64,000 nucleotides of DNA, from the NCBI GenBank assembly GCA_030390025.1, contig CM059432.1, forward strand, positions 74,650,001-74,714,000. Reading direction: 5' to 3'. Under the pieces are notes generated by a model. That model ran no database searches, was not told the DNA's origin, and saw only the letters and a program-made list of their open reading frames with translations. Shown here piece by piece: positions 13,166 to 51,677 of this stretch. Made by a program: the position numbers and the translations under genes. How positions within the stretch are numbered: the first letter of the stretch is position 1; each line of letters opens with the position of its first letter. The stretch is from Squalus acanthias (taxonomy: Eukaryota).

Positions 13166-13252
13166 AAAGGATCTTAGCTCTGAAAATCAAGAAGCGAGTG
13201 GTGATGACCTGGAATTCACTGCTGACAGAAGTGGTGGTAGTGGAGACACTCA

Positions 13253-14145
13253 GGGGTAGAAATTAGGTCGCGCCCCATTTGGGGCGCAAATATCGTCTGG
13301 ACGCAAATATAAGCGCCTGGCGCTAATTATCGGCACTGACTGGAAACTTCACTTTTACCGCCCTGGGAGGTGAGTGGAACGCTTAAGCAGGCGCTGCACA
13401 CCTGTCTTAAGGCGCAAAGGCCGAGCAGTGAGGCGCTAACTCAGAGCGCTGGCGAAGCTCATGTAATGTCAGTCAGCAATGGAACACACACACAATGGCA
13501 TGGGCCAGTTCTTAAAGGGGATGGTTAATCTTGCTTTCCATCCACATCCTGTTCATTGCAGCCTTGAATCTCGGCCTGGAGAGACTTGCACATCAAATGT
13601 GCTGGAAAGAACAATGGAGAGTACCAGGCAAAGAGCTCAGAGTGCAGCTCCCACAGTCTCTGCTAAATCGATACAAGGAATGGCAAATCAAAATGAACCT
13701 GCAAAGTGCTGCTCAGTACCCAAAACTCCTTCACACAACGTTGAATCTCTCCAGAAGTCTCTCCCTCTCTCTCTCAGAATGCGTAGTTCAAAAATGCCAC
13801 CAACAATAAAAGACAGGAAGAGGCCCCCTTTAAATAGCGCCCCCCCCAGCCCCACAGCGATTGATAGCGTTCCAGTCTTCTAGTCGTTGGAAGCGCCAGG
13901 CGGTAAGGCAGGGGGCGCCACTCAATTTCCGCGCCGGGGCGCCACAAGGGCGTTGCACCATGGAATGACGTCACAATCTGCGCGCGCAGGTGGTCGCAGC
14001 GGTAAGTTTTAGCGCCGCCGCACAATGTCAAGTTAAGTTCCCGAGCGGCGCAAACATCGCTGCGCCCGGGCGTTAGCGGCTTTGCGCCCCATTAGCGCCC
14101 TCTTAAGGCGCTAACGGGAGGCGCAACCAACTGAATTTTTACCCC
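13253..14145 (-). mobile_element. Harbinger MITE B (893 bp), non-autonomous relative of H2
   Basis: TIRs as in H2, TCA TSD; several hundred bp at both ends nearly identical to the H2 ends. Confidence 0.95.
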
Positions 14146-14305
14146 TCAATGTTTTCAAGGGGACACTGGATAGGCACTTGAGGGAAATAAACTTGCAGGG
14201 CTACGGGGATAGAGCGGGGGAATGGGACTGACTGGATTGCTCTACAGAGAGCTGGCATGGGCTCAATGGGCCGAATGGCCTCCTTCTGTGCCATTATGAC
14301 TCTAT

Positions 14306-15198
14306 GGGGTAAAAATTCAGTTGGTTGCGCCTCCCGTTAGCGCCTTAAGAGGGCGCTAATGGGGCGCAAAGCCGCTAACGCCCGGGCGCAGCGATGTTTG
14401 CGCCGCTCGGGAACTTAACTTGACATTGTGCGGCGGCGCTAAAACTTACCGCTGCGACCACCTGCGCGCGCAGATTGTGACGTCATTCCATGGTGCAACG
14501 CCCTTGTGGCGCCCCGGCGCGGAAATTGAGTGGCGCCCCCTGCCTTACCGCCTGGCGCTTCCAACGACCAGAAGACTGGAACGCTATCAATCGCTGTGGG
14601 GCTGGGGGGGGCGCCATTTAAAGGGGGCCTCTTCCTGTCTTTTATTGTTGGTGGCATTTTTGAACTACGCATTCAGAGAGAGAGAGGGAGAGACTTCTGG
14701 AGAGATTCAACATTGTGTGAAGGAGTTTTGGGTACTGAGCAGCACTTTGCAGGTTCATTTTGATTTGCCATTCCTTGTATCGATTTAGCAGAGACTGTGG
14801 GAGCTGCACTCTGAGCTCTTTGCCTGGTACTCTCCATTGTTCTTTCCAGCACATTTGATGTGCAAGTCTCTCCAGGCCGAGATTCAAGGCTGCAATGAAC
14901 AGGATGTGGATGGAAAGCAAGATTAACCATCCCCTTTAAGAACTGGCCCGTGCCATTGTGTGTGTGTTCCATTGCTGACTGACATTACATGAGCTTCGCC
15001 AGCGCTCTGAGTTAGCGCCTCACTGCTCGGCCTTTGCGCCTTAAGACAGGTGTGCAGCGCCTGCTTTAGCGCTCCACTCACCTCCCGGGGCGGTAAAAGT
15101 GAAGTTTCCAGTCAGTGCCGATAATTAGCGCCAGGCGCTAATATTTGCGTCCAGATGATATTTGCGCCCCAAATGGGGCGCGACCTAATTTCTACCCC
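14306..15198 (+). mobile_element. Harbinger MITE C (893 bp), inverted near-identical copy of MITE B
   Basis: GGGGTAAAAATT / AATTTCTACCCC, TAT TSD inside a TATGACTC tail. Confidence 0.95.
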
Positions 15199-16128
15199 TA
15201 TGACTCTAAGTAGAATCCGTTTGGATGGAGCTAAGAAACAGCAAGGGGCAGAAAACATTGGTGGGAGTTGTTTATAGGCCCCCAAACAGTAGTTGTAATG
15301 TAGGGCAGAGTATAAATCAGGAAATTAGAGGCGCATATAACAAGGGTAATACAGTAATCATGGGGGACTTTAATCTACATATAGACTGGGCAAACCAAAT
15401 TTGCAGTAATAGTGTGGAGGATGAATTCATGGAATTTATGCAAGATAGTTTTCTAGATCAGTATGTTGAGGAACCAACAAGGGGACAGGCTATTTTAGAT
15501 CTAGCATTGTGCAATGAGAAAGGGTTAATTAATAACCTTGCAGTAAAGGGGCCTTTACAGAAGAGTGACCATAATATGATAGAATTTTATATTGAGTTTG
15601 AAAGTGATTTAGTTAAATCCAAAACTAGGGTCTTAAATCTAAACAAAGCAAACTACGTGGACATGAAGGGCGAGTTGGCTAAGGTAGATTGGGAAACTAC
15701 ATTAAAAGGCATGACGGTAGACAAGCAATGGCTAGCATTTAAAGAATTAATACATAATTTACAACAAATATACATTCCTTTGAGGCACAAAAACCCCACA
15801 GGAAAAGTGGTCCAACCATGGCTAACAAGAGAAGTTAAAGATAGTATTAGATCAAAGGAAGAGGCTTATAATGCTGCCAAAAAGAGTAGTAAGCCTGAGG
15901 ATTGGGAGTATTTTAGAATTCAGCAAAGGAGGGCCAAGAAATTGATAAAGAAAGGGAAAATAGAATGAGAGTAAACTAGCGAGAGACATAAAAACAAACT
16001 GTAAAAGCTTCTATAGGTATGTAAAAAGGAAAAGATTAGCAAAAGTAAATGTGGGTCCCTTACAGGCTGAGACAGGAGAGATTATAATGGAGAATAAGGA
16101 AATGGCAGAGAAATTAAACAAATACTTT

Positions 16129-16922: not shown

Positions 16923-18755
16923 TTTGTGTCTGTCTTCACAGAAGAAGACGCAAAAACTTCCCGGAATTAGTGAAGAACCAAGGATCTAGCGAGAATGAGG
17001 AACTGAAAGAAATTAGTATTATTAAAAAATTAGTATTGGAGAAATTAATTGGACTGAAAGCCGATAAATCCCCCTGGACCTGATGGCCTACATCCTAGGT
17101 TTTTAAAAGAGGTGGCTATAGAGATAGTGGATGCATTGGCTGTCATTTTCCAAAATTCCATAGATCCTGGAATGGTTCCCTTGGATTGGAAGGTAGCAAA
17201 TGTAACCCCACTATTTAAGAAAGGAGGGAGAGAGAAAATGGGGAACTACAGACCAGTTAGCCTGACATCAGTAGTAGGGAAAATGCTAGAATCTATTATT
17301 AAGGACGTGGTAACAGGGCACTTAGAAAATAATAATAGGATTGGGCAGAATCAACACGGATTTATGAAAGGGAAATCGTGTTTGACGAATCTGTTAGAGT
17401 TTTTTGAGGTTGTAACTAACAGAATAGATAAGGGGGAACCAGTGGATGTGGTGTATTTGGATTTTCAGAAGGGATTCGATAAGGTGTCACACAAGAGGTT
17501 ATTAAACAAAATTAGGGCTCATGGGATGGGGGGTAATATACTAGCATGGATTGAGGATTTGTTAACGGACAGAAAACAGAGAGTAGGAATAAACGGGTCA
17601 TTTTTGGGTTGGCAGGCTGTAACTAGTGGGGCACTACAAAGATCAGTGCTTGGGCCTCAGCTATTCACAATCCATATCAATGATTTGGATGAGGGGGCCA
17701 AATGTAATATATTCAAGTTTGCTGATGATACAAAGCTAGGTGGGAATGTAAGTTGTGAGGAGGATGCAAGGAGGCTTCAAGGGGATATAGACAGGCTAAA
17801 TGAGTGAGCAAGAACATGGCAAATGGAATATAATGTGGATAAATGTGAAGTTATCCACTTCAGTAGGAAAAATAGAAAAGCAGATTATTTTTTAAATGGT
17901 GAGAGATTGGGAAATGTTGGTGTTCAGAGGGACCTGGGTGTCCTTGTACACGAATCACTGAAAGTTAACATGGAGGTACAGCAAGCAATTAGGAAAGCAA
18001 ATGGTATGTTGGCCTTTATTACAAGAAGATTTGAGTATAAGAGTAAAGATGTCTTAATGCAATTATATAGGGTCCTGGTGAGACCGCACCTGGAGTATTG
18101 TGTACAGTTTTGGTCTCCTTACCTAAGGAAGGATATACTTGCCATAGAGGGAGTGCAACGAAGGTTCACCAGACTGATTCCTGGGATGGGGGGATTGTCT
18201 GATGAGGACAGATTGAGTCGACTAGGCCAATATTCTCTAGAGTTTAGAAAAATGAGAGGTGATCTCCTTGAAACATACAAAATTCTTACAGGGCTTGACA
18301 GGGTAGATGCAGGGAGAATGTTATCCCTGGCTGGGAGTCTAGAACCAGGGGTCACAATCTCAGAATAAGGGGTCGGCCATTTAGGACTGAGATGAGAAGT
18401 TTCTTCACTCAGAGGGTGGTGAATCTTTGGAATTCTCTACCCCAGACAGCTGTGGAGGCTCAGTCATTGAGTATATTCAAGACAGAGATCGATGGATTTT
18501 TGAATGTTGAGGGAATCAAGGGATATGGGGATAGTGCAGGAAAGTGGAGATGAGGTAGAAGATCAGCCATGATCTTATTGAATGGCGGAGCAGGCTCAAA
18601 GGGTCAAATGGCCTACTCCTGCTCCTATTTCTTATGTTCTTATGGTCTTATGATAGGCACTGAAATCTGGATATGTGAGCACACATTCTCATACTCAGCC
18701 TCCAAATAACAACTTCCAGCAGCGGTCATTCCAAGACTGAGAGGTTCCTTTTCAG

Positions 18756-18908
18756 GAGTGCGGTTTAAACAGAGTGCCGCGAGTTGGGCGAGTCAGGGAG
18801 TCTTGTGAGGAGTGGAAGGAGGAGCTCCCTTGCTTCGCCTTTGTTGGCGAGATACAGGCTGCGAGATTCTCAGCTCAGCTCAGCTCAGCTCGGTGCTGTG
18901 TGAACGGG
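18756..18908 (+). repeat. Shared 5'-leader cassette, copy 1 (lacks the TATA-containing upstream half)
   Basis: GAGTGCGGTTTAAACAGAGTG..GAGGAGTGGAAGGAGGAGCTCCCTTGCTTCGCCTTTGTT..(CTCAG)n..GTGTGAACGGG matches 23223-23369 and 25917-26006. Confidence 0.9.
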
Positions 18909-21900
18909 ACTGAGTGCAGTTTGAACAGAGTGCTGAGAAGAGGAGAGGAGAGGAAAGGTCTCTCTCTGTGCCTAGGAGAAGAAGACAGAGCCACGAAGGA
19001 CAGAGTGGAGACCCTTTCCACCTCCACCACGCCTGTTGCTACTACAACTATTACTGCTGAGGTGCCAGGAGAGAGGAGAGGAGAGAGAGGAGAGACCTAC
19101 GTCAACTGGGGGAGGTGAGGTCGGGGATTAATCCAATCCCGCTCGGCTGCAGGGAGGCCAGCCTCCGGCACGTCTTCTCCTTCCGGCGCCAGCTATTTAT
19201 CCAGCTGGTGCGGGAGGAGGACACAGAGGGCGCGTTTGTCGTCCAACACGAGGGGACTGCCTACCGCTTCTGGATGTCGGACGGTGTGCGGTGCCACGCC
19301 TGCAAGGAGGTGGGGCACATAAGAAGGAACTGCCCCACCTCCAAGGCCGCCAAAACATGAGTCACCTCTCCAACATTTCCGGCGGGGTGGCTATCTTGCT
19401 GGCCCCGCATTTTCAGCCGGAGATCTTGGGGGTCAAGGAGCATGTGCCGGGCCGCTTGCTCCAGGTTACTGTTCGCCTGGGGGGCGTGCCACTCCATTTA
19501 GTGAACGTGTACACCCCCCAGGCCGGTGCGCAGCAAGTGCGCTTCTTCAAAGAAGTGTCCGCTCTTCTGGGCACCGTCAACGTCGGCGAGTGCGTCATCC
19601 TCGGGGGGGATTTTAATTGTACCCTTGAGGCGAGGGACCGTTCCGGTCTCCCGCGAAGCCTGGCGGCGACAGTGAAGTTGAGGGACCTGGTCGGGTCCCT
19701 CGACTTGGTGGACATCTGGCGGAATCTCCATCCCGACTCCAGCACCTTCACTTGGGTGGGGTCTGGAGGAGGAAGGTCCAGAATCGACCACCTTTATATT
19801 TCCCGGGTGTACGTCTCCTGCGTTCCGGCGGCTTCCATGCGGCCGGTGCCGTGCACGGACCACCACCTGGTGTGGGCGGAGCTCGCTCCGTTGCGCGCGC
19901 CGGGGGAATCCGCGTACTGGCATTTTAACAACCTACTGCTGGAGGATGAGCGGTTCCGGGATTCGTTTCGTCGGTTCTGGGCCGACTGGCGAAGGAAGCT
20001 GGGGGGCTTCCCCTCCTTGAGGCTATGGTGGGACGTGGGCAAGGCTCACGTCCATTTCTTCTGTCACGAGTACGCGAGGGGGTTGACCAAGAGGCGGGAG
20101 GCCTGGGTCGGGCGGTTGGAGAAAGAAGTGCTCGACCTGGAGTCCCGTCTCGGTCAAGTCGTCGAAGACCCGGCCCTGCGGAAGGTGTACGAAGAGAAGA
20201 AGGGCGCGCTCAAGGACCTGCAGCTCGTCGGGTCCCGAGACGCGTACGTGAGGTCGCAGATCCAGTTCCTCCGGGAACTGGACCGCGGCTCCCCCTTCTT
20301 CTACTCGCTGGAAAAAGGACGGGGGGTCCGTAAGCAGCTCTTGGGGCTGCTGGCCGACGACGAGGGAATCAGCGCGGAGACCCGGGCCTATTACGGGGCT
20401 CTGTTCTCTCCGGATCCGTCCAGCGAAGATGCGCGCAGAGATTTGTGGGAGGACCTGCCGAAGGTCGGCCCGGAGGTCGCCGAGAAATTGGAAGCTCCGC
20501 TAAGCCTGGCGGAGCTGACCGGCGCCCTGTGCCAGCTCTCGAGGGGAAAGTCCCCGGGGCTGGACGGGCTGACTGTGGAGTTCCACAGGGCGTTCTGGGA
20601 CGTCTTGGGGGGCGACTATACGCGGGACCTGGGGGAAAGTCTGGCGACCGGGTAGATGCCCCTCTCTTGGCGCAGGGTGGTCATCGTCCTGCTGCCCAAG
20701 AGGGGTGATCTCCACCTCTTAAAAAACTGGCACCCGGTCTCTCTCCTCAGCACGGACTATAAAATTTTTGCCAGGGCTATGTCTGCCCGCCTTGGCACCG
20801 TGCTGGCCCACATGATCCACCCCGACCAGTCCTACACGGTCCCGGGCCGGACCATCCATGACAACATCCATCTGGTCCGGGACCTGGTCCACCTTTCCCA
20901 GAGGGCTGGTCTGTCGGTCGCCTTCCACTCCCTGGATCAGGAGAAGGCGTTCGACAGGGTGGATCACGAGTATCTTTTCGGAACTCTGCGCGCATTCGGG
21001 TTCGGGACGCATTTCGTCGCCCGGATCCGACTTCTGTACGCCGCCGCGGAGTGTCTGATTAAAGTTAACTGGTCTTTGACGGCGCCCCTTCGCTTCGGGA
21101 AGGGGGTACGTCAGGGATGCCCCATATCCGGTCAGTTATACACCGTTTGCGTGGAGCCTTTCCTGCGCCTCTTGCGGAAGAGGTTGACGGGACTGGCTCT
21201 GCAAGGGCCGGGCGTGGAGGTCGTCCTCTTGGCTTACGCCGATGACGTGCTCCTCATGGTTACGGATCCCATCGACTTGCGGAGGATGCGAGAATGCCAG
21301 CAGATTTACTCGGACGCATCCTCCGCCAGGATCAACTGGGAGAAATGTTCTGGACTCCTGGTGGGCCAATGGTGGGTGGACCCCCTGCCGGAGGAGTTCA
21401 GGCCCTTGGAGCACAACGCACCTCCTCTACTTGGGAGTCTACCTCGGCCCTGCTGAGGACACCTGGCCGGCGAACTGGCAAGAGCTGGAGGCCAAATTCA
21501 CCGCTCGCCTAGGACGCTGGACGGGGTTGCTCCGAGTGTTGTCCTACAGGGGTCGAGCGCTGGTCATAAACCAGCTGGTGGCCGCCATGTTGTGGTACCG
21601 GTTGGTCACTTTGATCCCTCCCCCTGCGTTTGTCGCCAAGATACAGAAGATGCTCATCGACTTCTTCTGGGACAAAAGGAAGCACTGGGTCTCTGCCGCG
21701 GTTCTGTGTCTCCCGCTTAGGGAGGGCGGTCAGGCGCTGGTGTGCATTCGCACCCAGGCGGCGACTTTCCGTCTTCAGACGCTGCAGAGGTACCTTTACG
21801 TCGAGAATCCTCCCAGATGGTGTGCGCTGGTGACGTATTTCTTCCGCCAGATGCACGGCCTCAACTACGACACGCAGCTCCTGTTTGTGGAATTGGGCCG

Positions 21901-23110
21901 CACGCGTGCCTACCTGTGGGAGCTGCCTGTCTTCTACCAGGAACTGCTATGGGTCTGGAACCAGGTCGCCTCCAGGCGGAGTTCTCCCCCGTCAGGAGCC
22001 GCTGCTCAGGAATCCGCACCTCCACGTCCGACGGATCGGGTGGCTGGTGGAGGGCAGGGCTGTGCCTGGCAAGGTGACCAGAGTCAGGGACCTGCTCGAT
22101 GGCAGAGGAGCGGGCTGGATGGCGCCGGAGGAGTTGGCGCGGCGCCTCTCCTGGGTCGATGTCTGGTGCGCGACCAAAGCCATCGAGTCGCTAAAAGTGG
22201 CACTGGGCCCGGACTCCACTAGGTGTATCGAGGAGGCTGAAGCACGTGTGGCGATCCCGTCCGAACTGACCTCCGTTCGGACGGAATTCCTCATCGGCGC
22301 GCGGCCCCGAAACCCCTCTCGGGAACCGGCGCCTCACAACTTGAGCCGTCTCGGGGAAATGCCCTCTGTGCCCTTCAGTTCTGCACGGAGGGGTTTCCTG
22401 TACGGGCTGCTGCTGCACACTTTCCAGTTTGTCATCTTCGCCTGCCGTCCGGACACGCCTTGGCGTGCCATCTTGCCGTCCGGCGGAGGCGAAGGTCCCC
22501 AATGGAGGGCTCTCTACGCGGGAGTCCTCCCCTTTTCTATTGGGGACCTGGCCTGGAGGGTGTTGCACGGAGCAGTCCCGTGCAATCAGTTTTTAAGTAG
22601 GTTCACGGACTCCCAGGCCGCCTGTCTTTTTTGCGGCCTCGAGGAGTCCGTGTTCCACGTGTACGCACAATGTGAGAGGTTGCAGCCCCTCTTTGAATAT
22701 TTGAAGGGGCTGCTCCTCGCTTTTTGGTTGCACTTCAGTCCCACGCTCCTGATCTATGGTCACCCGGTGCGGAGGGGAGAGGGCAGGTTGGAGGACCTCC
22801 TCGTAGGACTGCTCCTGGGCCTGGCCAAAGTGGCCATTAACAGGTCCAGGCAGCGGGCGGTCGAGGGGGTCGTTCGGCCCAATTGCCTGCCTCTCTTCCA
22901 TGGCTATGTTCGCGCCCGGGTGGCCCTGGAGATGGAGCACGCGGTGTCCACCGGCACGCTTGAAGCCTTCCGAGACCGGTGGGTACCGCAGGAACTGGAG
23001 TGCATCGTCTCCCCGGACAATGTTATTTTAGTTTAATGAGATAAGTTTCATTTGAAGTTTTGTTAATTTACAGTCGTTTTATGTTGACTCAAAAAGAGTT
23101 ACAAAAGAGT
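18909..23110 (+). mobile_element. Tx1-clade (L1 group) non-LTR retrotransposon, internally deleted
   Basis: ORF1 remnant with CCHC knuckle CHACKEVGHIRRNC joined to ORF2; short T-rich 3'UTR ending AAAAAGAGTTACAAAAGAGT. Confidence 0.9.
19357..23036 (+). pseudogene. Tx1-type ORF2 (APE + RT + C-terminal zinc finger); one stop (20653) and frameshifts near 21410 and 22000
   Basis: GGVAILL, GGDFN, SRID, TDH, WHFNNLLL, KSPGLDGL, DQEKAFDRV, GVRQGCPISG, YADD, CLFCGLEESVFHVYAQC. Confidence 0.92.
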
Positions 23111-23369
23111 TACAATTCAGAGCAGCTGAAGGCAGTTAATTAGGGAAACTAGATAAACTGGTTCTCCTGTAGCAGAACCCAGCAAGCTCCTTTGTTTCAG
23201 GGCCTATAAAAACAGGCTTTGCAGTGCGATTTAAACAGAGTGCTGTGAGTTGGAGGAGTCAGGGAGTAAGGTGAGGAGTGGAAGGAGGAGCTCCCTTGCT
23301 TCGCCTTTGTTGGAGAGACACAGGCTGTGAGAATATCAGCTCAGCTCAGCTCGGTGCTGTGTGAACGGG
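23111..23369 (+). promoter_or_regulatory. Shared TATA-promoter/leader cassette, copy 2
   Basis: TACAATTCAGAGCAGCTGAAGG..CCTATAAAAAC (TATA 23205-23211)..AAACAGAGTG; 18 bp shorter than copy 3 just downstream of the TATA. Promoter function inferred. Confidence 0.7.
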
Positions 23370-23873
23370 TGAGCGAGCATACCCCGGCTGCTTGCGGGGA
23401 ATGCTAGTACAGAGGGCCTGGTACAGAAGGCCCGGGGCGGGAAGGCTGTGAGATTCTCAGCTTAGCTTGGTGCTGTGTGAACGGGCTGTTCCACACCCCG
23501 GCTGCTCGCAGGTAATGCCAGTGCGGAGGGCCCAGTGCAGAAGGTCCAGGGTGAAAGACCCAGAGGAGAGTGGCCTAGGTGGGAGGCCCAGCACGGGGAA
23601 CCCCAGGCGGGGGGCCTAGGGTGGCCTAGGTGGGAGGCCCAGCATGGGGAACCCCAGGCGGGGGGCCGAGGGTGGAGCGGCTAGTCGGCAGAGGTGGAGT
23701 TGGGAGATGCTGTGGGTGAGCATGCTGCACTGGTTCTAAAAGTTCAAGAATGGTGTCGGGCCCGAATGAGTTCCAGCGGCCCTGTATGTGCCCTGTCTGG
23801 CGGCAGCTGTGAGGCTTTTTCTTGGTGACGGGATCGGGTTCGTGCGCCGCCATTTTGGTGGAGGAAAGACAAA

Positions 23874-24134
23874 GGGCTGGATTTTGATACAGGGGCGGGT
23901 TGGGGTCGTGTTATCCACCCGCCTGCAATTGGATGTGGGAGATTGATGCAATTTTCACTTAATTGGGCAATTGAGTTCCAGCATGTGGGAACCCATGAAC
24001 TAATTAGTGGTTTCAGTCTGAAAGTCACCTCTGATGATGTCATCATTGCAGGTCAGAGACTGCCTGGCTTTTGCTATGAGAGGACCAGGATGCAAAATGA
24101 GCACGCACACACACACACACAGAGACAGAGAGAC

Positions 24135-24188
<54 letters not shown>

Positions 24189-24406
24189 AAAGCCAAAGCC
24201 AAAGCCAAAGCCAAAGCCAATGCAGGGCTTGTTAAGGGCTTTAATGGCCTCTCCCGCCTCTTGCAGGCGGGACGGAGTCGGGAACACCGCACATGATTTT
24301 ATCAAAATTGCGTGAGGCGGGATGTGGTCGGGGACCCCGAAATCTGCAACTTTAACCCCCCCCACGCCTCCAAACCCGACTCCACGGGTCATTGGAAATC
24401 CAGCCC
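23874..24406 (+). mobile_element. Harbinger MITE E (533 bp), relative of H3
   Basis: GGGCTGGATTTTGATAC.. / AAATCCAGCCC, AAA TSD; both arms align by eye to the H3 ends; centre is microsatellite. Confidence 0.9.
24102..24220. repeat. Compound microsatellite (CA)n-(GAGACAGA)n-(GA)n-(GCCAAA)n
   Basis: Directly visible. Confidence 0.95.
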
Positions 24407-25021
24407 AAACTGTTTCCATCTGTAGCATGGCGCGTGAGCGGTCACAAGATGGAAAATGTGAACGGTTAAAAGTGGAAAAAAAAAGGAAAATTAAAGGAAG
24501 ATAAAAGACAAAACTAAGTCATATCGGTGAGGAATAATGAATATTTTTTGATGACTGGGTCCTGTGAGCGATAACAGCAAGTAGAAGAAAATCTGAGTTT
24601 TCTGTCTTTTTTACGGGATTAAGAAAGTGGATGATTTCTTTTCCGTGGAAAAGCTGAAGACTGTGGACAAGGACTGTGACATCACATGGTTTGACAAACA
24701 TCAAGTGAAAACGAGGAGTTATTAGATTGCCAATAGGACTGGCATAGAACTGGTATTTACTTGTTTTGTCGAAAAAAGTTTCAGGTTTTCTGGTTGAAAG
24801 CAATCTACTTGAAGTTTTAATTGATTTCTGATAAGGTTATGGGATTTTGCAGATTGTGTTGTTAATTAGTGTTTATGTAGAATTTGCTTTGAGATTATTG
24901 TCTAGTAAATGGTATGTCTTATAAAAAGGAAGAAAATAAGTTAATGGGGGGAAAATTAAAAGGAAGAAACATTGGTAAGAAATTTATGGCTGGCTTTCGG
25001 GGGGGAAAAAATGTCCTTATT

Positions 25022-25440
25022 GAACGAACGAACGAACGAACGATTGCACGCATGCATATTGGAACTTACGCTTGATCGAAGGAACAATCATTTGGCTAGC
25101 GATTGAACGAGCGAATGCACACATGCACGCACTTAGACAAATGGTACGCACGCACGCATACATATTGGAACTTACACTCGATCGAACGAACGACGTTTAG
25201 TCGCGGGCCGGGCAATGAATGATCGAACGGACGAGCGAACGCAAGCATGCACATTGGAACTTATACTCGATCGAACGAACGGTCGTTGGCCTCTGAACGA
25301 GCGAACGCACGCATGCACGCACTTAGACAAACGATACGCATGCACATTGGAACTTACGCTCGATCAAACGAACGAACGCTTGAGTGAACGAACGAACGAT
25401 TGAATGAACGATCGTATGAACGATTGAATGAACAAACGAT
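25022..25440. repeat. CpG-rich complex tandem repeat: (GAAC)n plus four copies of a ~36-nt motif
   Basis: GCATGCACATTGGAACTTACGCTCGATCGAACGAAC-like motif near 25050, 25156, 25245 and 25338. Confidence 0.85.
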
Positions 25441-25786
25441 GCTAGTAGGACTGGCATAAAATGGGTAGTAGTATATTTGTAGCATTTAATTGAATTATGA
25501 TGGTGCTATGTGATTTGTACACTGAGGTGTCAAACTGTTTTCTTTTATGTGGCGTTTACCTTGAGATTTATTGTTTTAAATCTACAAAGTTTGTGAGATT
25601 ATTCAAGGGTATTTGTACTGTAAACTTTGATTTATTTGTAAAATGTTATTAATGTATTTATATTGTTAATCGTAAAGCTGTTCTTAAGGCTTTATTGTTT
25701 GTTGTGATCAATGAATGTAATGGTCTACTATGTAATTGATGAGCTGTGTAAGTACTATTGTACTTGAATAAAAGATTTACAAGGCC

Positions 25787-26006
25787 TACAATTCAGAGCA
25801 GCTGAAGGCAGTCAATTAGGGAAACTAGATTAAACTGGTTCTCCTGTAGCAGAACCCAGCAAGCTCCTTTGTTTCAGGGCCTATAAAAACAGGCTTTGCA
25901 GTGCGATTTTTGCACTGAGTGCGGTTTAAACAGAGTGCTGCGTGTTGGGTGAGTCAGGGAGTAAGGTGAGGAGTGGAAGGAGGAGCTCCCTTGCTTCGCC
26001 TTTGTT
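25787..26006 (+). promoter_or_regulatory. Shared TATA-promoter/leader cassette, copy 3, in front of CR1 #2
   Basis: Same TACAATTCAGAGC start; TATAAAA at 25882; GCACTGAGT with A at 25914 (TATA+32), a plausible start site. Confidence 0.75.
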
Positions 26007-26294
26007 TTTCCTAACTTTTCACCCTGTAGGAATTGGTTCTTACTTTACACCAAGGAAAGAGTCTGAGAGCAGGAGCAGTCCAACAACAACTGAAAAACCG
26101 CTAAAGTGATGTCACAACTAGGGAAGGAGCTGATTCGTAAGTAGGACCAGGTGAGTGTTTCTACAGTCCAGTCGTTAAAGTAAAAGTAAGGTCTCTAGTT
26201 TAGAGTAAGTAGTGTTTAAAGGGAAGTAAGGTCCCTAGTGTATTTAATATTCTTTAATTTAAAGGAAGTAAAGGGAGTAAATTAAGGGTAGGAC

Positions 26295-27240
26295 ATGGCA
26301 GGGCAGCTCGGCAACGTGGAGTGCTCCTCCTGTGCTATGTAGGAAGTCAGGGACACTTTAGGTGTCCAGGGTGAACACATGTGCAGGAAGTGTCTCCAGC
26401 TGCAGCTACTCGAAATCCACGTTTCAGAGCTGGCGCTGCGGCTGGAGTCACTGTGGAACATCCGCGAAGCTGAGATCTTCGTGGATAGCACGTTTAACGA
26501 GGTGGTCACACCACAGGTAAAGAGTGCACAGGCAGACAGGGAATGGGTGACCGCCAGACAGAGTAAAAGAACTAGGAAGGTAGTGCAGGAGTCCCCTGGG
26601 TCCATCTCCCTCTCCGACAGATTTTTCGTTTTGGATACTGCTGGGGGAGATGGTTTCTCAGGGGAATGCAGCAAGAGCCAAGTCCATGGCACTACGAGTG
26701 GCTCAGCTGCACAGGAGGGGAGGAAAGAGTGGGAGAGCAATAGTGATAGGGGATTCTATCGTAAGGGGAACAGATAGATGGTTCTGTGGCTGCAGACGTG
26801 ACTACAGGATGGTATGTTGCCTCCCTGGTGCCAGGGTCAAGGATGTCACTGAACGGCTGCAGGGCATTTTGAAGGGGGAGGGCGAACAGTCAGAGGTCGT
26901 GGTTCACATTGGTACCAACGACATGGGTAGAAAGAGGGATGAGGTCCTGCAACAAGAATTTAGGGAGCTAGGTAGCAGATTAAAAAGCAAGACCTCAAAG
27001 GTTGTAATCTCTGGATTACTCCCGGTGCCACGTGCTAGTGAGTATAGGAATAGGAGGATAGAGCAGATGAATGTGTGGCTAAAGAGTTGGTGCAGGAGGG
27101 AGGGCTTTAGTTTCCTGGATCACTGGGTCTGCTTCTGGGGAAGGTGGGACCTGTACAAGTCGGACGGGTAGCACCGGAACGGGACCAACATCCTTGCGGG
27201 GAGGTTTGCTGGTACTGATGGGGGGGGGTTTAAACTAACT
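26295..27240 (+). pseudogene. CR1 #2 ORF1 (zinc finger/zipper + SGNH esterase)
   Basis: MAGQLGNVECSSCAM*..CRKCLQLQLL; IGDSIVRG; HIGTND; DLYKSDG; stop and frameshift present. Confidence 0.88.
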
Positions 27241-27357
27241 TCGCAGGAGGATGGGATACGGAGTGGAGCTATAGTAGGGGGTGATGCACAGCCAAATATA
27301 GAGGAAAAAGCAAGTCAGCCTGGAAGGCAGAGCAAATATGTAACGGCACAAGGGAGT

Positions 27358-30300
27358 ATGGCAAGGCTGGATGGCATTTATTTTAATGCAAGGAGTCTTG
27401 CGAGTAAGGCAGATGAATTGAAGGTGTTGATGAACACATGGGAGTATGATATTGTTGCTATCACAGAGACATGGTTGAGGGAGGGTCAGGACTGGCAGCT
27501 CAATATTCTGGGGTATAGAATCTTCAGGTGACAGAGGGGGGTGTAAAAGAGGAGGGGGTGTCACAATATTAATCAAGGAGTCAATTACTGCTGTACGGAG
27601 GGATGATATCTTAGCAGGTTCCTCTAATGAGGCCATATGGGTAGAACTTACAAAACAAAAAGGGGGCCAGCACTTTGCTGGGAGTGTACTATAGGCCCCC
27701 AAACAGTCAGGGGGAGATAGAGGAACTGATATGTAGGCAAATCTCAGAAGTGTAGAAATAATAGGGTAATACTAGTAGGGGATTTCAACTTCCCCAATAT
27801 TAACTGGGATAGTCAGAGTGTGAAAGGCTTAGAGGGTGCGGAATTCTTAAAGTGCATCCAGGGGAGCTTTTTGAGCCAGCATGTAGAAAGTCCTACAAGA
27901 GAGGGGGCGGTAATGGACCTAATTCTAGGGAATGTAGCCGGGCAAGTGGTAGAAGTGTCAGTAGGAGAGCATTTTGGTGACCGTGACCATAATTCGGTGA
28001 GATTTAAGGTAGTCATGGTAAAGGACAAAGATGGACCGGAAATAAAGGTTCTAAATTGGGGGAAGGCCGATTTTAATATGATAAGGCAGGATCTGGCCAA
28101 AGTGGACTGGGATCAGCTACTTGTAGGAAAATCCACATCAGAGCAGTGGGAGTCCTTCAGAAAGGAAATAGAGAGAGTACAACGCCAACATGTTCCCGTA
28201 AAGGTCAAGGGTGGGACCAACAAGCCCAGGGAACCCTGGATGTCAAGGGATATACAAGAATGGATTAGGGAAAAAGGGAGGCTTTTGGCAGATACAAAGG
28301 ACTAAACAGTGGAAGCCCCAGAGGAGTATAGAAAGTGCAGGGGGGCACTTAAAAAATAAATTAGGAGAGCGAAGAGGGGGCATGAAAAAACACTGGCGGG
28401 CAAAATAAAGGAAAATCCCAAGGTGTTTTATAAGTATATTAAGGGCAAGAGGATAACCAGGGAAAGAGTAGGGCCCATTCGGAACTAAAGTGGCAATGTG
28501 TGTGTAGAGCCGGAAGATGTGGGTGAGGTTGAAATGAATATTTTGCATCTGTGTTTACTATGGAAAAGGACGATGTAGGCATAGAAATCAGGCAGCGGGA
28601 TTGTGATATACTTGAACAAATTAGTATTGGGAGGGAGGAGGTACTAGCGCTTTTAGCGGGCTTAAAAGTGGATAAATCCCCAGGCCCAGACGAGATGTAT
28701 CCCAGGCTGCTGCGTGAGGCAAGGGAGGAGATTGCAGGGGCTCTGACACAAATTTTCAGAACCTCTCTGGCCACAGGGGAGGTGCCAGAGGACTGGAGAA
28801 CAGCTAACATAGTACCATTATTCAAGAAGGGTAGTAGGGATAAACCAGGGAATTACAGGCCAGTGAGCCTAACATCAGTGGTAGGGAAATTATTGGAAAA
28901 AATTCTGAGGGACAGAATTAGTCTCCACTTGGAGAGGCAAGGATTAATCAAGAATAGTCAGCATAGCTTTGTCAGGGGGAGATCGTGTCTAACCAATTTG
29001 ATTGAATTTTTCGAGGGGGTGACTAGGTGTGTGGATGAGGGTAGTGCAGTTGATGTAGTCTACATGGACTTCAGTAAGGCTTTTGACAAAGTCCCGCATG
29101 GGAGACTGGTCAAGAAGGTAAGAGCCCATGGGATCCAGGGCAATTTGGCACATTAGATTCAAAATTGGCTTAGTGGCAGGAGGCAGAGGGTGATGGTCGA
29201 AGGTTGTTTTTGTGACTGGAAGCTTGTGTCCAGTGGTGTACTGCAGGGATTGGTGCTGGGTCCCTTTCTGTTTGTAGTGTACATTAATGATTTAGATATG
29301 AATGTAGGAGGTATGATCAGTAAGTTCGCAGATGACACGAAAATTGGTGGAGTGGTAAATAGTGAGGAGGGAAGCCTCAGGCTACAGGACGATCTAGACG
29401 GGTTTGTTAGATGGGCAGAACAATGGCAAATGGAATTTAACCCTGAAAAGTGTGAGGTGATGCATTCTGGGAGGACTAACAAGGCAAGGGAATACACAAT
29501 GAATGGTAGGACCCTAGGAAGGACAGAGGATCAGAGGGACCTTGGTGTGCATGTACATAGATCCCTGAAGGCAGCAGGACAGGTAGATAAGGTGGTTAAA
29601 AAGGCATATGGGATATTTGCCTTCATTAGCCGAGGCATAGAATATAAGAGCAGGGAGGTTATGATGGAGCTGTACAAAACGCTAGTTACATAGAAACATA
29701 GAAGATAGGAGCAGGAGTAGGCCATTCGGCCTCTCGAGCCTGCTCCGCCATTCGATGAGATCATGGCTGATCATCCAAACTCAGTACCCTGTACCTGCCT
29801 TCTCCCCATATCCCTTGATACCTTTAGCTTTAAGAAATATATCTAACTCATTCTTGAATATATTTCATGACTTGGCCTCAACTACCTTCTGTGGTAGAGA
29901 ATTCCACAGGTTCACCACTCTCTGGGTGAAGAAATTCCTCCTCATTTCTGTCCTAAATGGCTTACCCCTTATCCTTAGATTATGACCCCTGGTTCTGGAC
30001 TCTCCGACCATCGGGAACATTCTTCCTGCATCTAGTTTGTCCAGTCCTGTCAGAATTTTATATGTTTCGATGAGATCCCCTCTCATTCTTCTATACTCCA
30101 GCAGGTATAAACCCAATCGACCCAATCTCTCCTCATATGTCATTCCTGCCATCCCAGGTATCAGCCTTGTGAATCTTCGCTGAACTCCCTCCATGGCATG
30201 AACATCCTTCTTAGGCCACAGCTGGAATACTGTGTGCAGTTCTGGTCGTCACACTATAGGAAGGATGTGATTGCATTGGAGAGGGTGCAGAGGAGATTCA

Positions 30301-30689
30301 CCAGGATGTTACCTGGGCTGGAGCGCTTCAGCTATGAAGAGAGACTGGACAGGCTGGGGTTGTTTTCTTTAGAGCAGAGAAGGTTGAGGGGGGACCTGAT
30401 TGAGGTGTACAAAATTATGAGGAGCATAGATAGGGTAGATAGAAAGGAACTTTTCCCCTTAGTAGAGGGATCAATAACCAGGGGGCATAGTTTCAAGTTA
30501 AGGGGCAGGAGGGTTAGAGGGGATTTGAAGAAAAACCTTTTCACCCAGAGGGTGGTTGGAATCTGGAACTCACTGCCTGAAAGGGTGGTAGAGGCAGGAA
30601 CCCTCACAACATTCAAGAAGCATTTAGATGAGCACTTGAAACGCCATAGCATACAAGGCTACGGACCAAGTGCTGGAAAATGGGATTAG
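27358..30689 (+). pseudogene. CR1 #2 ORF2 (APE + RT), with frameshifts, stops and an insertion
   Basis: YFNARSL, ITETWL, GDFN, DKSPGPD, YMDFSKAFD, FADDTKI, RPQLEYCVQFWS, GYGPSAGKWD*. Confidence 0.92.
29689..30210 (-). mobile_element. 5'-truncated CR1 3' fragment inserted antisense in CR1 #2
   Basis: MEGVQRRFTRLIPG..WNSLPQ on minus strand, (TTTCTATG)n tail, TTA TSD; host frame KTLV-RPQLEY restored. Confidence 0.9.
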
Positions 30690-31048
30690 AATAGACAGGG
30701 CTTGATGGCTGGCGTGGACACGATGGGCTGAAGGGCCTCTTTCTGTGCTGTATAACTCTATGACTCTATGGGCTGGATTTTGATACTGGGGCGGGCTGGG
30801 GTCGTGTAATCCGCATTTCGTGTTAGCTTCCCGATTCTAAATCGATGTGGGAGAATTATGCCATTTTAACCTAATTGGCCAATTGAGTTCCAATGTGTGG
30901 GAACCCATGGCCAGTGAGTTTTTCCAGTCTGAAAGTCGCCTCCGATGATGTCATCATTGCTGCTGCATTTAAGGTCTGCAACAAGTCTTGCTTCTTCTGC
31001 AGACTGCCAAGCTTTTGCCCTTGCATGTTAGAGGCACCTGCAGGAAGA

Positions 31049-33035
31049 ATGGCCAGCCAGAGACCTAGGTCTGCACCTCGATTTGATGACGTTGCCCTGC
31101 AGGCTTTAGTAGAGGGAGCAAGAGCAAACAAAGAGGTGCTCTTCCCTTCTTCAGGGAGGAGGAAGCCTCCCCAGCCAACCAAGGCTGTGTGGATCCAGGT
31201 GGCAGAGGAGGTCAACTCTTTGTCAATAACCCGCAGAACCTGGCTTCAGTGCAGGAAGAGGCTTCATGACCTTCTGCGCACTGGAAAAGTGAGTATGAAT
31301 TTCCCATCACCCTCAATCTGATCCCCATTGCCTCTCCTCACCAGCACTCAGCTTTAGCAATCTCTTCCTCCACATCCCACTTGACACTGACATCCCTGCA
31401 CCCTTACCCATTCCCTCTCTCTCTATGGTCACATTCACCTAACTATTCGCCTATGCAGCCCTCACACTCCCTATCACTGTGATGCAATTACAACTTACAA
31501 CACACAGGGAGGGCCCTTGGTCTTGCCACCTCACTCCATCTTTGTCTCCTTCTAAGCATCTATGCTATGGATTCTCTACACTCACTCCTTCATTCTCACT
31601 CAAACTCCACTTGTCTCCCTCATTGCAGGAAAAGAGAGCTCACAATAAGAGGGAAAGAGTGAGGACAGGAGGAGGGCCACCCTCAGTAGCCCAGCTCACC
31701 ACCTGGGATGGGATGAGGCGGTCCTGGAGATGGTGGGAGTGGAGGAATATTCCCAAGTGGGGGACGGACAGACGGGTGCATCACAGCAAGCCGGTGACAG
31801 AATAGTTTTCCATCTCTCTCAATGACATTGCATGAGTCGCTGATAATGATTCTGAAGCTCTAACAGATGGACTTATGATCATCTGCAATATGCAATGTGT
31901 AACCTTGGCCTCACATCTCTGACTCTTTCCTTTACTCCCCCCCCCAGGACCATCGCAAGCACCCGTCCCCACTATCCAGGAGGAAGAGCATGAGCCTCAA
32001 GACTCCTCAGAGGAAGCTGCAACCTCTGAGGGCGCAGCGTCAGCAGAATTCAGCGCACCCAGCACCAGCGCAGACACTCACACCTCCGAGGGAACATTGC
32101 GAGATAGAGTAGTGTTGTCACCTGGTGTATCACAGCTCACAAGTGAGCATCAGCAGATAGTGGAGACAGGGACAGCAGTGGAGAGTCCTAGTCGGAGGGC
32201 GCAGGACTCTCCCAGCTCGGCTCAGCTGCATGTCGACCCTCTGCCTCTGGGTCCATCCATAAGATCAGCAGTGCTGGAACTCCAGGAACAGATGCAGGAG
32301 TCTCTGGCAGGTTTTGTCTCCAGGGTCGCTGCGAGTGTGGAGCGAATGGAGGAGTCCATTGCGAACATGAGCAGAGCCTTTGTGGAGTCATTAGCGCATG
32401 AACGCATCACCACGGAAAGGATGGCAACGTCCGTGCAAATGATGGCAACCTCCGTCGAAAGGATGGCTACAGTAGACGATAAGATATCTGCGGCCATGGA
32501 GGAGATAAGTCGCCAGAGTGCAGAAAACATGGTGAGTGTTCAGAATAGAATGACATCTCTGGAGGAGCGATGGTCATCTATTGAACACAGAAACCAAACC
32601 TTCATGGAAGTCCTTCTGAGTAGGACTTCCAGTGCAGATACGGGTCCCCATGGCCCCCCTGATGTGCAGCAAGGTGCTCTCAATCCACTTGCAAGCGCTG
32701 AGGTGGACCTGACCCATGAGAGGGATGTTGTTTGCAGAGAACAAGGAAGTGGGGGCTCCTCTCCAAGCGCTCACACTTCCATGCCACTGACAAGTCCTCG
32801 GTCAAAGCCCCACCAGAGTTCGCACCCAACTGAGATCGGCGTCTCAACTCCTGCACAGCCGCAGGAGCAGCAGACTGTTGGCGAGCTCTCTCAGGTTCGC
32901 AATCACAGAGGACGCCCGCCAAAGGTGTCGAGACAGGAGCAGCAAGAAAGTGAGCAACGGGCCTCCACATCTGCTGAAGCCACAGGGGAAGCACCACGTA
33001 GGAGCACGTGTAAGAGAAAGATAGTGCACAAATAG
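31049..33035 (+). pseudogene. H3 Myb/SANT-like gene, 3 exons (31049-31288, 31629-31793, 31948-33035); 5-bp GGGAT duplication frameshifts exon 2
   Basis: MASQRPRSAPRFDDVALQALV..VWIQVA..RTWLQCRKRLHDL; EKRAHNKRERVRTGGG; coiled-coil-like exon 3. Exon 2 returns to 3n+1 length if the duplication is removed. Confidence 0.85.
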
Positions 33036-33292
33036 TCACAAGGGTAGTCACTTGGGTGAATTTTGATGTTTTATGTTAAAAAGCCATCAGATGATTACAG
33101 TAAATAAAAAATCTGATGGCTACTGCTGTAGTTGTGGCGTGCGTCATTTCGCGAATGGGACTTCCACATTGAGGGCTTAGGATTACTTGCAATTGTCAGT
33201 ATGGTGTTCAAATTGCTAGGAATCCGCTGGTTCTTGGCCATTGTCGATGCTCAGGTAAGAAGCTGCGAGGCAAAAGTGCTTGATTGGCTAGG

Positions 33293-34554
33293 CTAAGCAA
33301 ATCTGGCCAAGATGAGTGCGTTCCTTGCATCCTGGGCAGCAATGTTCTCGCGTACTGCTGCCGCTGGTTGATGGGCCTCTGCAAGATGTTTGTTTTCGCT
33401 CTCCTCCTCCTCCTCCTCCTCCTCCTCATCTGAGGAGGCTATGTGACGAGCCACTTGGTCCTCAGGAATCTGCAAGCCACGACGCTGTGCCATGTTGTGA
33501 AGTGCACAGCAAACCACGACGATTCTGGAGACCCTGGCTGCTGAGTACTGCAGGGCTCCACCTGATCTATCCAGGCATCTGAAGCGCATCTTCAGCAAAC
33601 CGATGGTTTGCTCAATTATGGCTCTGGTGGAAATGTGGCTGGAGTTGTAGCTCTCCTCAGCTTCGTTGGATGGGCTCCTCAACGGCGACATTAGCCACGT
33701 TTTCAGGGGATAGCCCTTGTCTCCAAGTAGCCATCCGTTAAGTTGGTCTGGCGGACTGAATAGCGGAGGCACACTAGACTGGTGCTGTATGAAGGAGTCA
33801 TGGCAACTGCCAGGGTACTTGGCACAAACATGCAAAATTTCCTTCTTGTGGTCACACACCAGCTGCATGTTGAGGGAGTGGAAGCCCTTGCGGTTGACAA
33901 AAATACCTGGATTGCGATGGGGTGCCTTAAGGGCCACGTGTGCAGTCAACGATGCCCTGCACCCTTGGAAAGCCTGCCAGATTAGCTAATCCAACCGCAC
34001 GCGCCGTAAGACTTGCTTGATCCTTGGTGAAATGGATGTGATTGTGCGCGATGGCAAAGAAGGCAAAGGTTACCTGCGTGATGCAAGTGTGTGCGGCCCC
34101 CTGGGAGATGCCGCTGATGTCTGCTGCTGATCCCTGGAATGAGCCTGAGGCAAAAAAGTTGAGTGCGGTGGTGACTTTGATGGCCACTGGTAAGGGTTGT
34201 CCACCTGGTCTTCTGGGCTCCAGGTCTTGTTGCAGCATTGTGCAGATGCCACCCACTACCTCTCGAAAGTCGGAGCCGCCTTTGGCACTGCTGCTCAGAC
34301 ATGTTAAGGTAGCTGACCCTGTGTCTGTAGACCCTGTTTGGGGGGTATCTCCTGCGCCGACGGGCTTCCATGTGCTGGCCCCTTCTGGCCTGTGCAGCTT
34401 CAGGTGGGTGAACAGCAGCTTGGCGCTCCTGTTGTTGCTGCTGCTGTTGGTGCTGCTGCTGTTGGTGCTGCTGTTGTTCATGGTTCTGCTGGTGCCGCGG
34501 CTGGTCTTCGTCCTCATCTGATGTCCAGAAGGGAAGGAAATAAATGGCTCCCAT
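33293..34554 (-). pseudogene. H3 DDE transposase with two frameshifts (near 34262 and 33940); N-terminal polyQ, C-terminal polyE
   Basis: [70 protein letters not shown]. Confidence 0.92.
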
Positions 34555-35229
34555 GCTTCTGGTATATGCCTCAGTTGAGGAAGCGCTCAGTCAAGGTGGC
34601 GAGAGGGGTTTCCCAGGAGGTCACACTGGAGATGGGTGTCAGGCTCCAAACTTCCACAGCTGTGGTTATGCCTTCTAAAAGTTCCCCCAGACCTGAGACA
34701 GCAAAGTCCTGCCACCTGCAAATGATGGCTGATCAAATCTCCTAATTAATGGTTGCGCTGCAGCTGAAAGTCAGCAATCCAATTGTGCTCCCGCCAGGTT
34801 TCACTGTCATGTTTCAGAACAGGCGTGCTTCACATGGGAAAAGGGTTAAAATCACAAAGGCTTATCAAAATGGCATTATAGAGGCAATTTAGTGCTTGTT
34901 AAGGGCCTTAACGGCCTATCCCGCCTCTTGGAGGCGGGACGGAGATGGGACCAGTAGACAAGATTTAATGAAAATTGCTTGGAGGTGGGATGGAGGCGGG
35001 GTTGGGCCCGCCCGCCAGTTTTTGCAATTTTAACCATCCACACGCCTCCAATCCCGCCTCAACGGCGCGATGAAATTCGAGCCCTATGACTCTGAGACAT
35101 CCACTTTCAGCATGGTGGAAGGACCAGTGCAATTCAGCTTGTGATGTGTCAGCCATCTTGTTGTTCTAGACATCCAAGTCCAATGCTGCACACTTATTGC
35201 TCATCAATAAGTGCTTAATTCAGATGCTC

Positions 35230-50800: not shown

Positions 50801-51585
50801 AATAGAAGGGACTAACATAAGGGATTAATAGAAGATATCTATACAAGGGATCAATACAAGGGATCAATACAAGGGATCTATACAAGGGATCAATACAAGG
50901 GATCAATAAAAGGAATCAATAAAATGGATCAATACATGGAATCAATACAACAGATCAATAGAAGTGATCAATACAAGGGAGCAATACAAGGGACCAATAG
51001 AAGGGACTAATAGAAGGGATCAATACAAGTGTTTAATACAAGTGATCAAGAGAAGGGATCAATACAAGTGATCAGGACAGGGGATCAGGACAAGTGATCA
51101 GGACAAGTGATCAGGACAAGGGATCAATACAAGGGATGAGTACAAGGGATCAATACAATGGATCAGTACAAGGGATCAGTACAAGTGATCAATGCAAGGG
51201 ATCAATAGAAGTGATCAATAGAAGGGATCAATACAAGGGATCAATAAAAGGGATCAATAGAAGGGATCAATACAAGGGATCAATACAAGAGACTAATAGA
51301 AGGGATCAATACAAGGGATCAATACAAGGGATCATTACTTGCAATCAATACAAGGGATCAGTACATGCGATCCATACATGGCATCAATACAAGGGATCAG
51401 GAAATGGCTTCAATATAAGGGATCAATAGAAGAGATCAATACAAGGGATCAATACAAGGGAACAATACAAGGGATTAGTACAAGGGATCAGCACAAGACA
51501 TCAATACAAGGGATCAATACAAGGGATCAATACAAGGGATCAATACAAGGGATCAATACAAAGGCTCAAAACAAGAGATCAATAC

Positions 51586-51677
51586 GGGGATAGGGTGGGA
51601 TATGTGTCGATGCAGGCTCGATGGGCCGAAATGGCCTCTACCTGCACTGTGGGAATTCTGTATGCTGTATTCTGTGT
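51586..51677 (+). mobile_element. 92-bp CR1/SINE 3' tail inserted in the satellite, copy 1
   Basis: GGCTCGATGGGCCGAAATGGCC stem-loop, (TTCTGTAT)-like tail, AATAC TSD; empty site visible near 50055. Confidence 0.85.

Follow-up and report, generated by a model that had tools for sequence, protein, structure and literature searches.

How could long interspersed elements (LINEs) of two distant clades, neither of which carries long terminal repeats (LTRs), come to stand in one head-to-tail train whose units are all led by the same promoter-like cassette? The question is raised by a 64-kb window of the Squalus acanthias genome (assembly GCA_030390025.1, contig CM059432.1, positions 74,650,001 to 74,714,000 of the forward strand), where a Tx1-clade LINE, a non-coding middle unit and a CR1 LINE follow one another on the plus strand. 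Analysis of this window and of the 3.7-Gb genome favoured a model, to which we assign a probability of roughly 65%, in which Tx1 targets one site in the CR1 promoter leader, full-length passengers copy the promoter by way of homology in its start region, and CR1 carries the resulting train. In the module names used here U3 extends from the target site to the putative start site, R is the start region, M is the middle unit and x is a 92-nt spacer that follows a short R' and does not occur in this window.

A preliminary description of the locus had placed three cassette copies along the train, and self-alignment of the window confirmed them at 87–93% identity (18756–18845 against 25917–26006, 93% over 90 nt; 18757–18908 against 23223–23369, 88%; 23092–23311 against 25770–26006, 87%). 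The TATA boxes attributed to copies 2 and 3 were found as TATAAAA at 23205 and 25882, copy 1 does begin at the base equivalent to 25917 (TATA+35), and the proposed order of Tx1, cassette, non-coding unit, cassette and CR1, all on the plus strand, was borne out by Pfam domains and named protein relatives. Two points required amendment. The three units had been called unrelated, which holds for Tx1 and CR1 as distant clades but not for the Tx1-dependent middle unit, as it has a 5' link in common with Tx1 and a Tx1-type tail. In addition, the train had been ended at 30769, where the CR1 tail is in fact split by a Harbinger-type transposon, the true 3' end lying near 35092. The shared block begins at an 11-bp target site (25779–25789), an extra 58-nt link is common to copies 1 and 2 and absent from copy 3, and copy 2 is without 18 nt between the TATA box and R, the putative start site included. 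The features are as follows.

18756–18845, plus strand: R copy 1, the 5' end of the train, starting 3 nt past the putative start site; the 5' ends of other copies pile up here.
18846–18908, plus strand: link common to the Tx1 and M 5' ends and native to the head of the M family.
18909–18937, plus strand: older, diverged R-like tag opening the Tx1 5' untranslated region (UTR); some copies (L035, L055, L060) join U3 directly here.
18909–23100, plus strand: Tx1L-like LINE with APE, reverse transcriptase (RT) and zf-RVT domains (Pfam), interrupted by stops and frameshifts.
23101–23111, plus strand: altered junction, with an 11-nt repeat of the Tx1 tail in place of the target-site start seen in other trains.
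23112–23311, plus strand: cassette 2, U3 (TATA at 23205–23211) and R, with the 18-nt deletion that removes the putative start site.
23312–25778, plus strand: M unit, non-coding in the frames examined, comprising the link, link-like repeats, tandem repeats (25021–25440), an AT-rich 3' part with AATAAA and a Tx1-type tail.
23874–24406, no strand assigned: Harbinger-type miniature inverted-repeat transposable element (MITE), a later insertion in M with AAA duplicated, absent from other M copies.
25779–25789, plus strand: Tx1 target site, the sequence duplicated by truncated insertions.
25779–25913, plus strand: U3 of cassette 3, with TATAAAA at 25882–25888.
25914–26006, plus strand: R of cassette 3, with TGCACT at 25911–25916 and TGAGTCA at 25950; 5'-end pile-up.
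26007–30769, plus strand: CR1 LINE with 5' UTR, open reading frame (ORF) 1 from 26295 with a GDSL/SGNH esterase, ORF2 with APE and RT (Pfam), and a short-repeat 3' tail; stops and frameshifts.
About 29689–30212, minus strand: antisense insertion of a 3' fragment from a different CR1 family, with no interruption at this point in other copies.
30770–35084, no strand assigned: full Harbinger-type DNA transposon (Myb/SANT ORF, DDE_Tnp_4) in the CR1 tail with TAT duplicated, outside the train.
35085–35092, plus strand: rest of the CR1 tail, where the train actually ends.

Genome-wide searches demonstrated that this arrangement recurs. The cassette query returned 40 full-length matches at a minimum of 95% identity, several of them in pairs about 2.1 kb apart, and first-look searches gave 1186 cassette, 441 Tx1 5'-end, 2601 Tx1-tail, 1279 R'-x, 1913 CR1 UTR and 506 M-tail candidates, which are not copy numbers. 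From the 40 best Tx1 5'-end matches, 20 on large contigs were traced over 20 kb; CR1 sequence lay downstream in all 20 and the CR1 3' end was reached in 14. As the samples consist of top matches, they are biased towards young and complete copies. The window order Tx1-U3R-M-U3R-CR1 was found with other flanks in five trains (T125, T131, T137, T147 and T159), and composite trains reached about 16 kb. Junctions at 113 distinct cassettes were of the classes M-CR1 (26), Tx-CR1 (26), x-CR1 (25), x-Tx (11), Tx-M (10), Tx-Tx (6), x-M (4) and M-Tx (1), with other upstream sequence in the remaining 4. Two trains on different contigs (T127 and T135; loci L127 and L135) had in common a rearranged block of Tx1 tail and M 5' repeats between two Tx1 copies, and in T123 and T139 an internal deletion has fused Tx1 ORF2 to the 3' part of CR1, giving cross-clade hybrids.

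The preliminary description had allowed that the locus might be unique and that copies elsewhere might be without the cassette, which proved not to be so. A single local event, whether duplication or chance nesting, with no spread other than by segmental duplication, would be in keeping with the decay of the window copy, its many later insertions and the few near-duplicates among the sampled loci (L037/L038 and L062/L064). The same junctions, however, occur on many contigs, where the unrelated flanking sequences meet the trains precisely at R and at the CR1 tail, and this recurrence, together with the split-flank insertions described below, refutes such an origin, which we consider extremely improbable.

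The two coding elements belong to distant clades, their RT domains being 26% identical over 219 residues. ORF2 of a fuller sister copy of the Tx1 unit had as its best named match the Xenopus Tx1 149-kDa protein (50% identity over 89%), which together with the Pfam domains APE, RVT_1 and zf-RVT would place the first unit in the Tx1L lineage of the Tx1 clade, an assignment based on domains and similarity ranking rather than on a tree. For the last unit Pfam identified Lipase_GDSL_2 (E 9.8e-12), APE and RVT_1, and its ORF2 matched bird, turtle and elasmobranch proteins at 41–71% identity, none of which is named CR1 by its source. CR1 elements typically end in a 3' tail of short tandem repeats and produce little or no target duplication; short-repeat tails were found in 14 trains and the window, with flank overlaps of 1–3 nt in T131, T155 and T159. 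An esterase ORF1 has been used as the mark of canonical CR1 (PMC13343379), and the combination of an esterase ORF1 with an APE-RT ORF2 indicates, by similarity and not by a tree, that the last unit is canonical CR1. Three CR1-like RTs at 70–71% identity (P0121, P0159 and P0220) are filed under bacterial names on short contigs and are probably host contamination. DNA-transposon-like sequences starting with GG lie in the CR1 tail repeat of the window and of three of the 14 trains (at the 3' ends of T121, T129 and T145), which suggests a favoured Harbinger site.

The cassette is the 5' leader of the CR1 family, a TATA-bearing U3 followed by R. TGCACT, which we take to be an initiator-like motif, lies about 31 nt past the TATA box, and R also contains TGAGTCA. 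Genomic 5' ends cluster at TATA+30 to +39; among 30 loci retrieved with only the CR1 5' UTR, the 5' end falls within the first 12 nt of R in 16, U3 lies upstream in 12 and the start is later in two. These counts were taken from locus readings other than one 5'-end walk that misplaces a few U3-bearing loci (L049, L161 and L186). The pattern supports a putative transcription start in R, some 31 nt beyond the TATA box, with U3 as the presumed promoter. The CR1 leader often reads R'-x-U3-R, and both U3-R'-x-U3-R arrangements and leaders of 95-bp monomers occur in this genome. Promoter monomers of mouse L1 are also tandem modules near the 5' end. Contigs from four sequencing runs (four organisms) covered all 30 bins of a Tx1 tail-U3-R-CR1 stretch at no less than 88%, some bridging U3-R and R-CR1; none among the 32 matches listed, beyond which there are 45,052 more, spans Tx1 tail-U3 by 31 letters, and these contigs bear on neither expression nor junction conservation.

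It had been suggested that passengers dock at the CR1 promoter cassette, and the junctions substantiate this for Tx1. U3 was the next sequence in 14 of 30 sampled Tx1 tails (the window and one duplicate pair included), and genome-wide 60 of 191 exact Tx1 tails directly abutted an exact copy of the 11-mer site, compared with none in the control; a backwards control of the exact-tail search gave 36 matches, so that the 191 may include unrelated ones. Both proportions exceed the 20% of flanks in a single repeat that has been used to define target-specific Tx1 elements (PMC4494074), although this is partly the result of CR1 amplification. Because many site-bound tails have been multiplied by CR1, the independence of the insertions rests on truncated copies, a test also employed for crocodilian elements (PMC4494074). 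Twelve junctions of truncated Tx1 at the site had 11–12 different breakpoints, 11–12-bp target duplications and left ends fixed within 2 nt. A genome-wide pattern search for the site followed by anything but U3 gave seven matches, all of them truncated Tx1, and in L008 a private variant was present in both target-duplicate copies. With a TACA density of 6.8 per kb, no more than about 2,000 leader sites and 400–2,600 tails, roughly 0.03–0.2 such site hits would be expected by chance. That these are deleted full-length trains was rejected, as the left breakpoints are fixed within 2 nt while the Tx1 breakpoints vary. Dispersed Tx1 copies had target duplications of 12–28 bp in 11 of 16 cases, at sites mostly starting T|AC. 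Tandem copies of one truncated Tx1 end with the target 11-mer between them were noted in L192:1523-1876, as were three Tx1 tails 119–120 bp apart at G000:C7:40477382-40477640.

The M unit measures about 2.1 kb from cassette to cassette, the MITE excluded. A six-frame reading of three copies, made with no Pfam scan of these, gave low-complexity or antisense frames only, and the one window frame overlapping M had no Pfam match. A short interspersed element with an RNA-gene head (tRNA, 5S, 7SL or snRNA) was rejected, as no Rfam match was found in 18600–26400 at E up to 0.1. M also resembles an LTR-bounded element, in the identity of the cassettes on either side and in no other respect; an LTR element or a terminal-repeat retrotransposon in miniature was rejected because 18 of 20 M tails run on into U3-R-CR1, and a dispersed truncated copy (L208) stops at its tail with no cassette and is bounded not by the 4–6-bp duplication typical of an integrase but by a 13-bp one at a T|AC site, as in the dispersed Tx1 copies. 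M is Tx1-dependent and mobilised by the same kind of machinery.

Several further observations concern M. An older M-like family (77–82% identical to M) has its own 100-nt head and the link sequence (L087 and L089, after a Tx1 tail; L203:1107-1383); a related T|ACAC site is where Tx1 tails directly precede this family, and in L089 a Tx1 3' part and an M-like unit appear to be joined in tandem. At L203:1739-1765 an M tail leads into the target 11-mer and a poly(A) stretch, the pattern that polyadenylation of an M transcript at the docking site would leave. A Harbinger-type MITE in L220 ends at the same M position as that of the window while being only 82% alike, possibly marking an insertion hot spot, and an antisense Tx1 3' fragment that two loci on different contigs (L009/T147 and L172) have at the same place in the M tail is a nested insertion passed down in sister trains.

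The short target duplication was confined to truncated copies: the corresponding junction of full-length passengers, with the site followed by R within 25 nt, had no match genome-wide. The 30 Tx1 5' loci comprise 18 that open in R and 12 that are preceded by U3. Within trains the U3 copies differ by 1.9% (14 pairs) in comparison to 6.0% between trains (514 pairs; permutation p 1e-4) and 3.2% between trains of one haplotype. The U3 haplotype was the same in all 14 within-train pairs and in 159 of the 514 between-train pairs, and rare variants were in common in 12/17 within-locus pairs as opposed to 486/6311; in T159 two rare variants are present in all three cassettes. This near-identity upholds the earlier suggestion that each passenger acquires a cassette copy, and the involvement of several haplotypes indicates that copying occurred repeatedly.

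Two other explanations of this identity have to be considered. The first retains Tx1 targeting and CR1 transport and differs only in the origin of the second cassette, which would be assembled at the RNA level, either when RT at the 5' R jumps to the internal R of the same or another train RNA or when a Tx1 RNA carrying R'-x-U3 anneals upstream of the nick, as melanogaster-type R1 does. R has the marks of a recombination hot spot, with 1–3 nt of the R' variant frequently present in first R copies; L195 has a stack of R-link tags, an unrelated leader of 95-bp monomers joins at the R start, several loci have a partial U3 before R', and a similar template jump between direct repeats has been proposed for TART (PMC1636488). 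Jumps between loci nevertheless predict cassettes of two sources, whereas the within-train pairs were of one haplotype in 14 of 14 cases with many near-private variants in common. Jumps within one RNA predict a passenger tail upstream of the first U3, where several trains have x, and M-M dimers, yet there was no M-U3R-M junction among the 113 cassettes. We consider this origin of the second cassette unlikely.

Alternatively, Tx1 and M may have captured the leader once or a few times, and gene conversion together with unequal exchange may later have made the cassettes uniform and rearranged the modules. Such a history would account for the free variation in module order, the lack of truncated M at the site and within-train cassettes that are somewhat more alike than age predicts. 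It would also require complete conversion of a 220-bp repeat over 2–7 kb in 14 of 14 pairs and in several haplotypes, and it leaves unexplained both the 12 target-duplicated junctions at one site and the absence of full-length junctions with short duplications; we judge it a little less likely again than assembly at the RNA level.

The proposal that a train moves as one unit ending in the CR1 tail gained support from the recurrence with other flanks and from split-flank sites. The trains finish at the CR1 tail and have no long duplication. Five of 15 interrupt a single older repeat, adjacent halves of which form their two flanks, and these trains were therefore inserted as single units. T131 (14.3 kb, in the window order) and T149 have R at the start with Tx1 directly behind it, indicating that Tx1 was aboard at insertion; passengers of the other three split-flank trains, which have an x leader, may have docked at a later time.

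Taken together, the favoured model of Tx1 docking, promoter copying and CR1 transport can be set out in three steps. The CR1 family would have an external TATA promoter in U3, with RNA starting in R about 31 nt downstream. In the first step, drawn from the junctions, Tx1 machinery would nick the x/U3 boundary and insert Tx1 RNA there, 5'-truncated products receiving the ordinary 11–12-bp duplication and no promoter. In the second, full-length Tx1 or M RNAs would open with R, so that the complementary DNA end could pair with the target R about 135 nt downstream of the nick, and U3 copied from the target would complete the junction, yielding x-U3-R-passenger-U3-R-CR1 with two identical cassettes. 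As the passenger tail rebuilds the target site, further units can stack. In the third, suggested by train structure, a transcript from the upstream U3 would read through passenger and CR1, and CR1 machinery would retrotranspose the whole RNA from its own tail to give R-passenger-U3R-(M-U3R)-CR1. Full-length Tx1 would thus take promoter and transport alike from CR1. A more far-reaching formulation, which we regard as evenly balanced between right and wrong, is that of a self-copying promoter module shared across clades: full-length Tx1 would persist only as CR1 cargo, dock before the CR1 promoter, duplicate it from the target via R in an LTR-like step and be spread by CR1 in modular trains, while the R'-x leader of CR1 may itself be the smallest passenger and a route by which the external promoter is renewed.

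A number of results weigh against this model. Targeting is a preference, as 16 of the 30 sampled Tx1 tails lie elsewhere. M is not represented among the 12 truncated insertions at the site, so that M docking by target-primed insertion is deduced from its tail and one dispersed copy. Five of the 30 CR1 copies, all among the 16 that start in R, join a different leader of about 95-bp tandem monomers without U3 at the R start (L170, L179, L180, L188 and L189), and U3 is therefore not the sole 5' module of the CR1 family. Within trains 18 U3 changes were counted where body divergence predicts 29.9 (P 0.014), a shortfall compatible with later docking in place or with gene conversion, and the greater similarity of the first R to the internal R is weak (7.2% vs 8.2%, p 0.011). 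Ten of the 15 trains, the window included, have no informative flank. Finally, Tx1/CR1 co-phylogeny on shared derived sites in 14 trains was not detected (rho -0.155, p 0.92), the CR1 tree being star-like, and the correlation of Tx1 and CR1 distances in the same number of trains (rho 0.46, p 0.024) may only reflect shared age; repeated docking or a star-like CR1 tree would be expected to leave Tx1 subfamilies that do not track CR1 variants.

The window copy is best modelled as a second-generation train that has since decayed through deletions and nested insertions. Compared with a fuller copy, its Tx1 has two internal deletions of about 1.2 kb near 19094 and about 1.6 kb near 19358, fuller Tx1 copies measuring about 7.2 kb. 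No clear target duplication brackets the train in the window, a 14/19 flank match seen by eye being too decayed to count. Elsewhere in the window a large 13-bp tandem satellite with more than 1,000 registers fills the end (about 48800–64000), and an inverted repeat with 894-nt arms, 99% complementary and 160 nt apart, lies at 13252–15199.

In comparison to known systems, the train would add promoter copying and hitchhiking to the target specificity of Tx1 elements. Tx1-clade elements that target transposons include Xenopus Tx1L in Tx1D, crocodilian Tx1-Mar and SINEU in Mariner-N4_AMi, and Tx1-8_Crp and Tx1-4_AMi in LTR retrotransposons; hitchhiking was tested and rejected in the crocodilian case (PMC4494074). 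As described there, they belong to the same clade as our element and likewise prefer one site in a mobile element, duplicate their target and stack in tandem; a non-autonomous partner uses a site of the same type, and independent insertion was judged from truncated copies. They differ in what is targeted, which in our case is another LINE's promoter leader, and in that full-length copies here bring a whole duplicated cassette and are then moved by the target element.

HeT-A/TART and melanogaster-type R1 would be the closest working analogues, with R2/R1 hybrids and Terminons further off. Drosophila HeT-A/TAHRE and TART also form head-to-tail non-LTR arrays that resemble LTR elements from promoter to promoter, but those are telomeric, while the arrays described here are dispersed, join two distant clades and move as whole trains (PMC5537684, PMC1636488). 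The HeT-A promoter lies in the element's own 3' UTR (PMC5537684), whereas the presumed promoter here lies in the CR1 leader downstream of the passenger tail and past the target duplication. Dispersed copies of Tx1 and M stop short of U3, and U3 also follows x; U3 is thus not part of the upstream unit, and the train falls outside the HeT-A type, although it would work in a similar way. In 28S ribosomal DNA, truncated copies of melanogaster-type R1 all have target duplications and full-length copies have a homology-guided 5' junction, and tandem R1 arrays grow by insertion into the duplicated site with non-autonomous units interspersed, as in our trains (PMC2718515). The homology used by R1 is located upstream of the nick, giving a 9-bp deletion or 16–27-nt duplications in an immobile host gene (PMC2718515), in contrast to the downstream homology and the repetition of about 135 nt of promoter plus R proposed here. 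In R2/R1 hybrid SIDEs the 5' module of one element likewise serves the body of another (PMC3414825). Terminons of bdelloid rotifers are also very long multi-unit retroelements, but in the account available in PMC5537684 they contain Penelope/Athena RTs at telomeres, with no Tx1 or CR1 parts and no targeted docking. The 5' subunit arrays of vertebrate CR1-group elements are tandem modules near the 5' end as well, though in elements described as having no ORF1 (PMC13343379), while the CR1 studied here has an esterase ORF1 and shares its module with another clade.

No Tx1-CR1 promoter-sharing train was found in the literature searched, which leaves most subscription papers and Repbase Reports outside it, or in the portion of the 2026 CR1-group survey covered (PMC13343379). 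Repeat libraries would split or discard such trains as chimeras, which may explain the lack of reports. In this genome one LINE would obtain its promoter and its transport from a LINE belonging to a distant clade, and hundreds of modular copies have junctions that can be read for each step. The old idea that tandem non-LTR elements can give rise to LTR-like terminal repeats would gain a dispersed case from vertebrates, and the trains imply that CR1 machinery can retrotranspose RNAs of 12–16 kb with more than 10 kb of 5' cargo. They may also offer a testable route by which LINEs swap and renew their 5' promoters.

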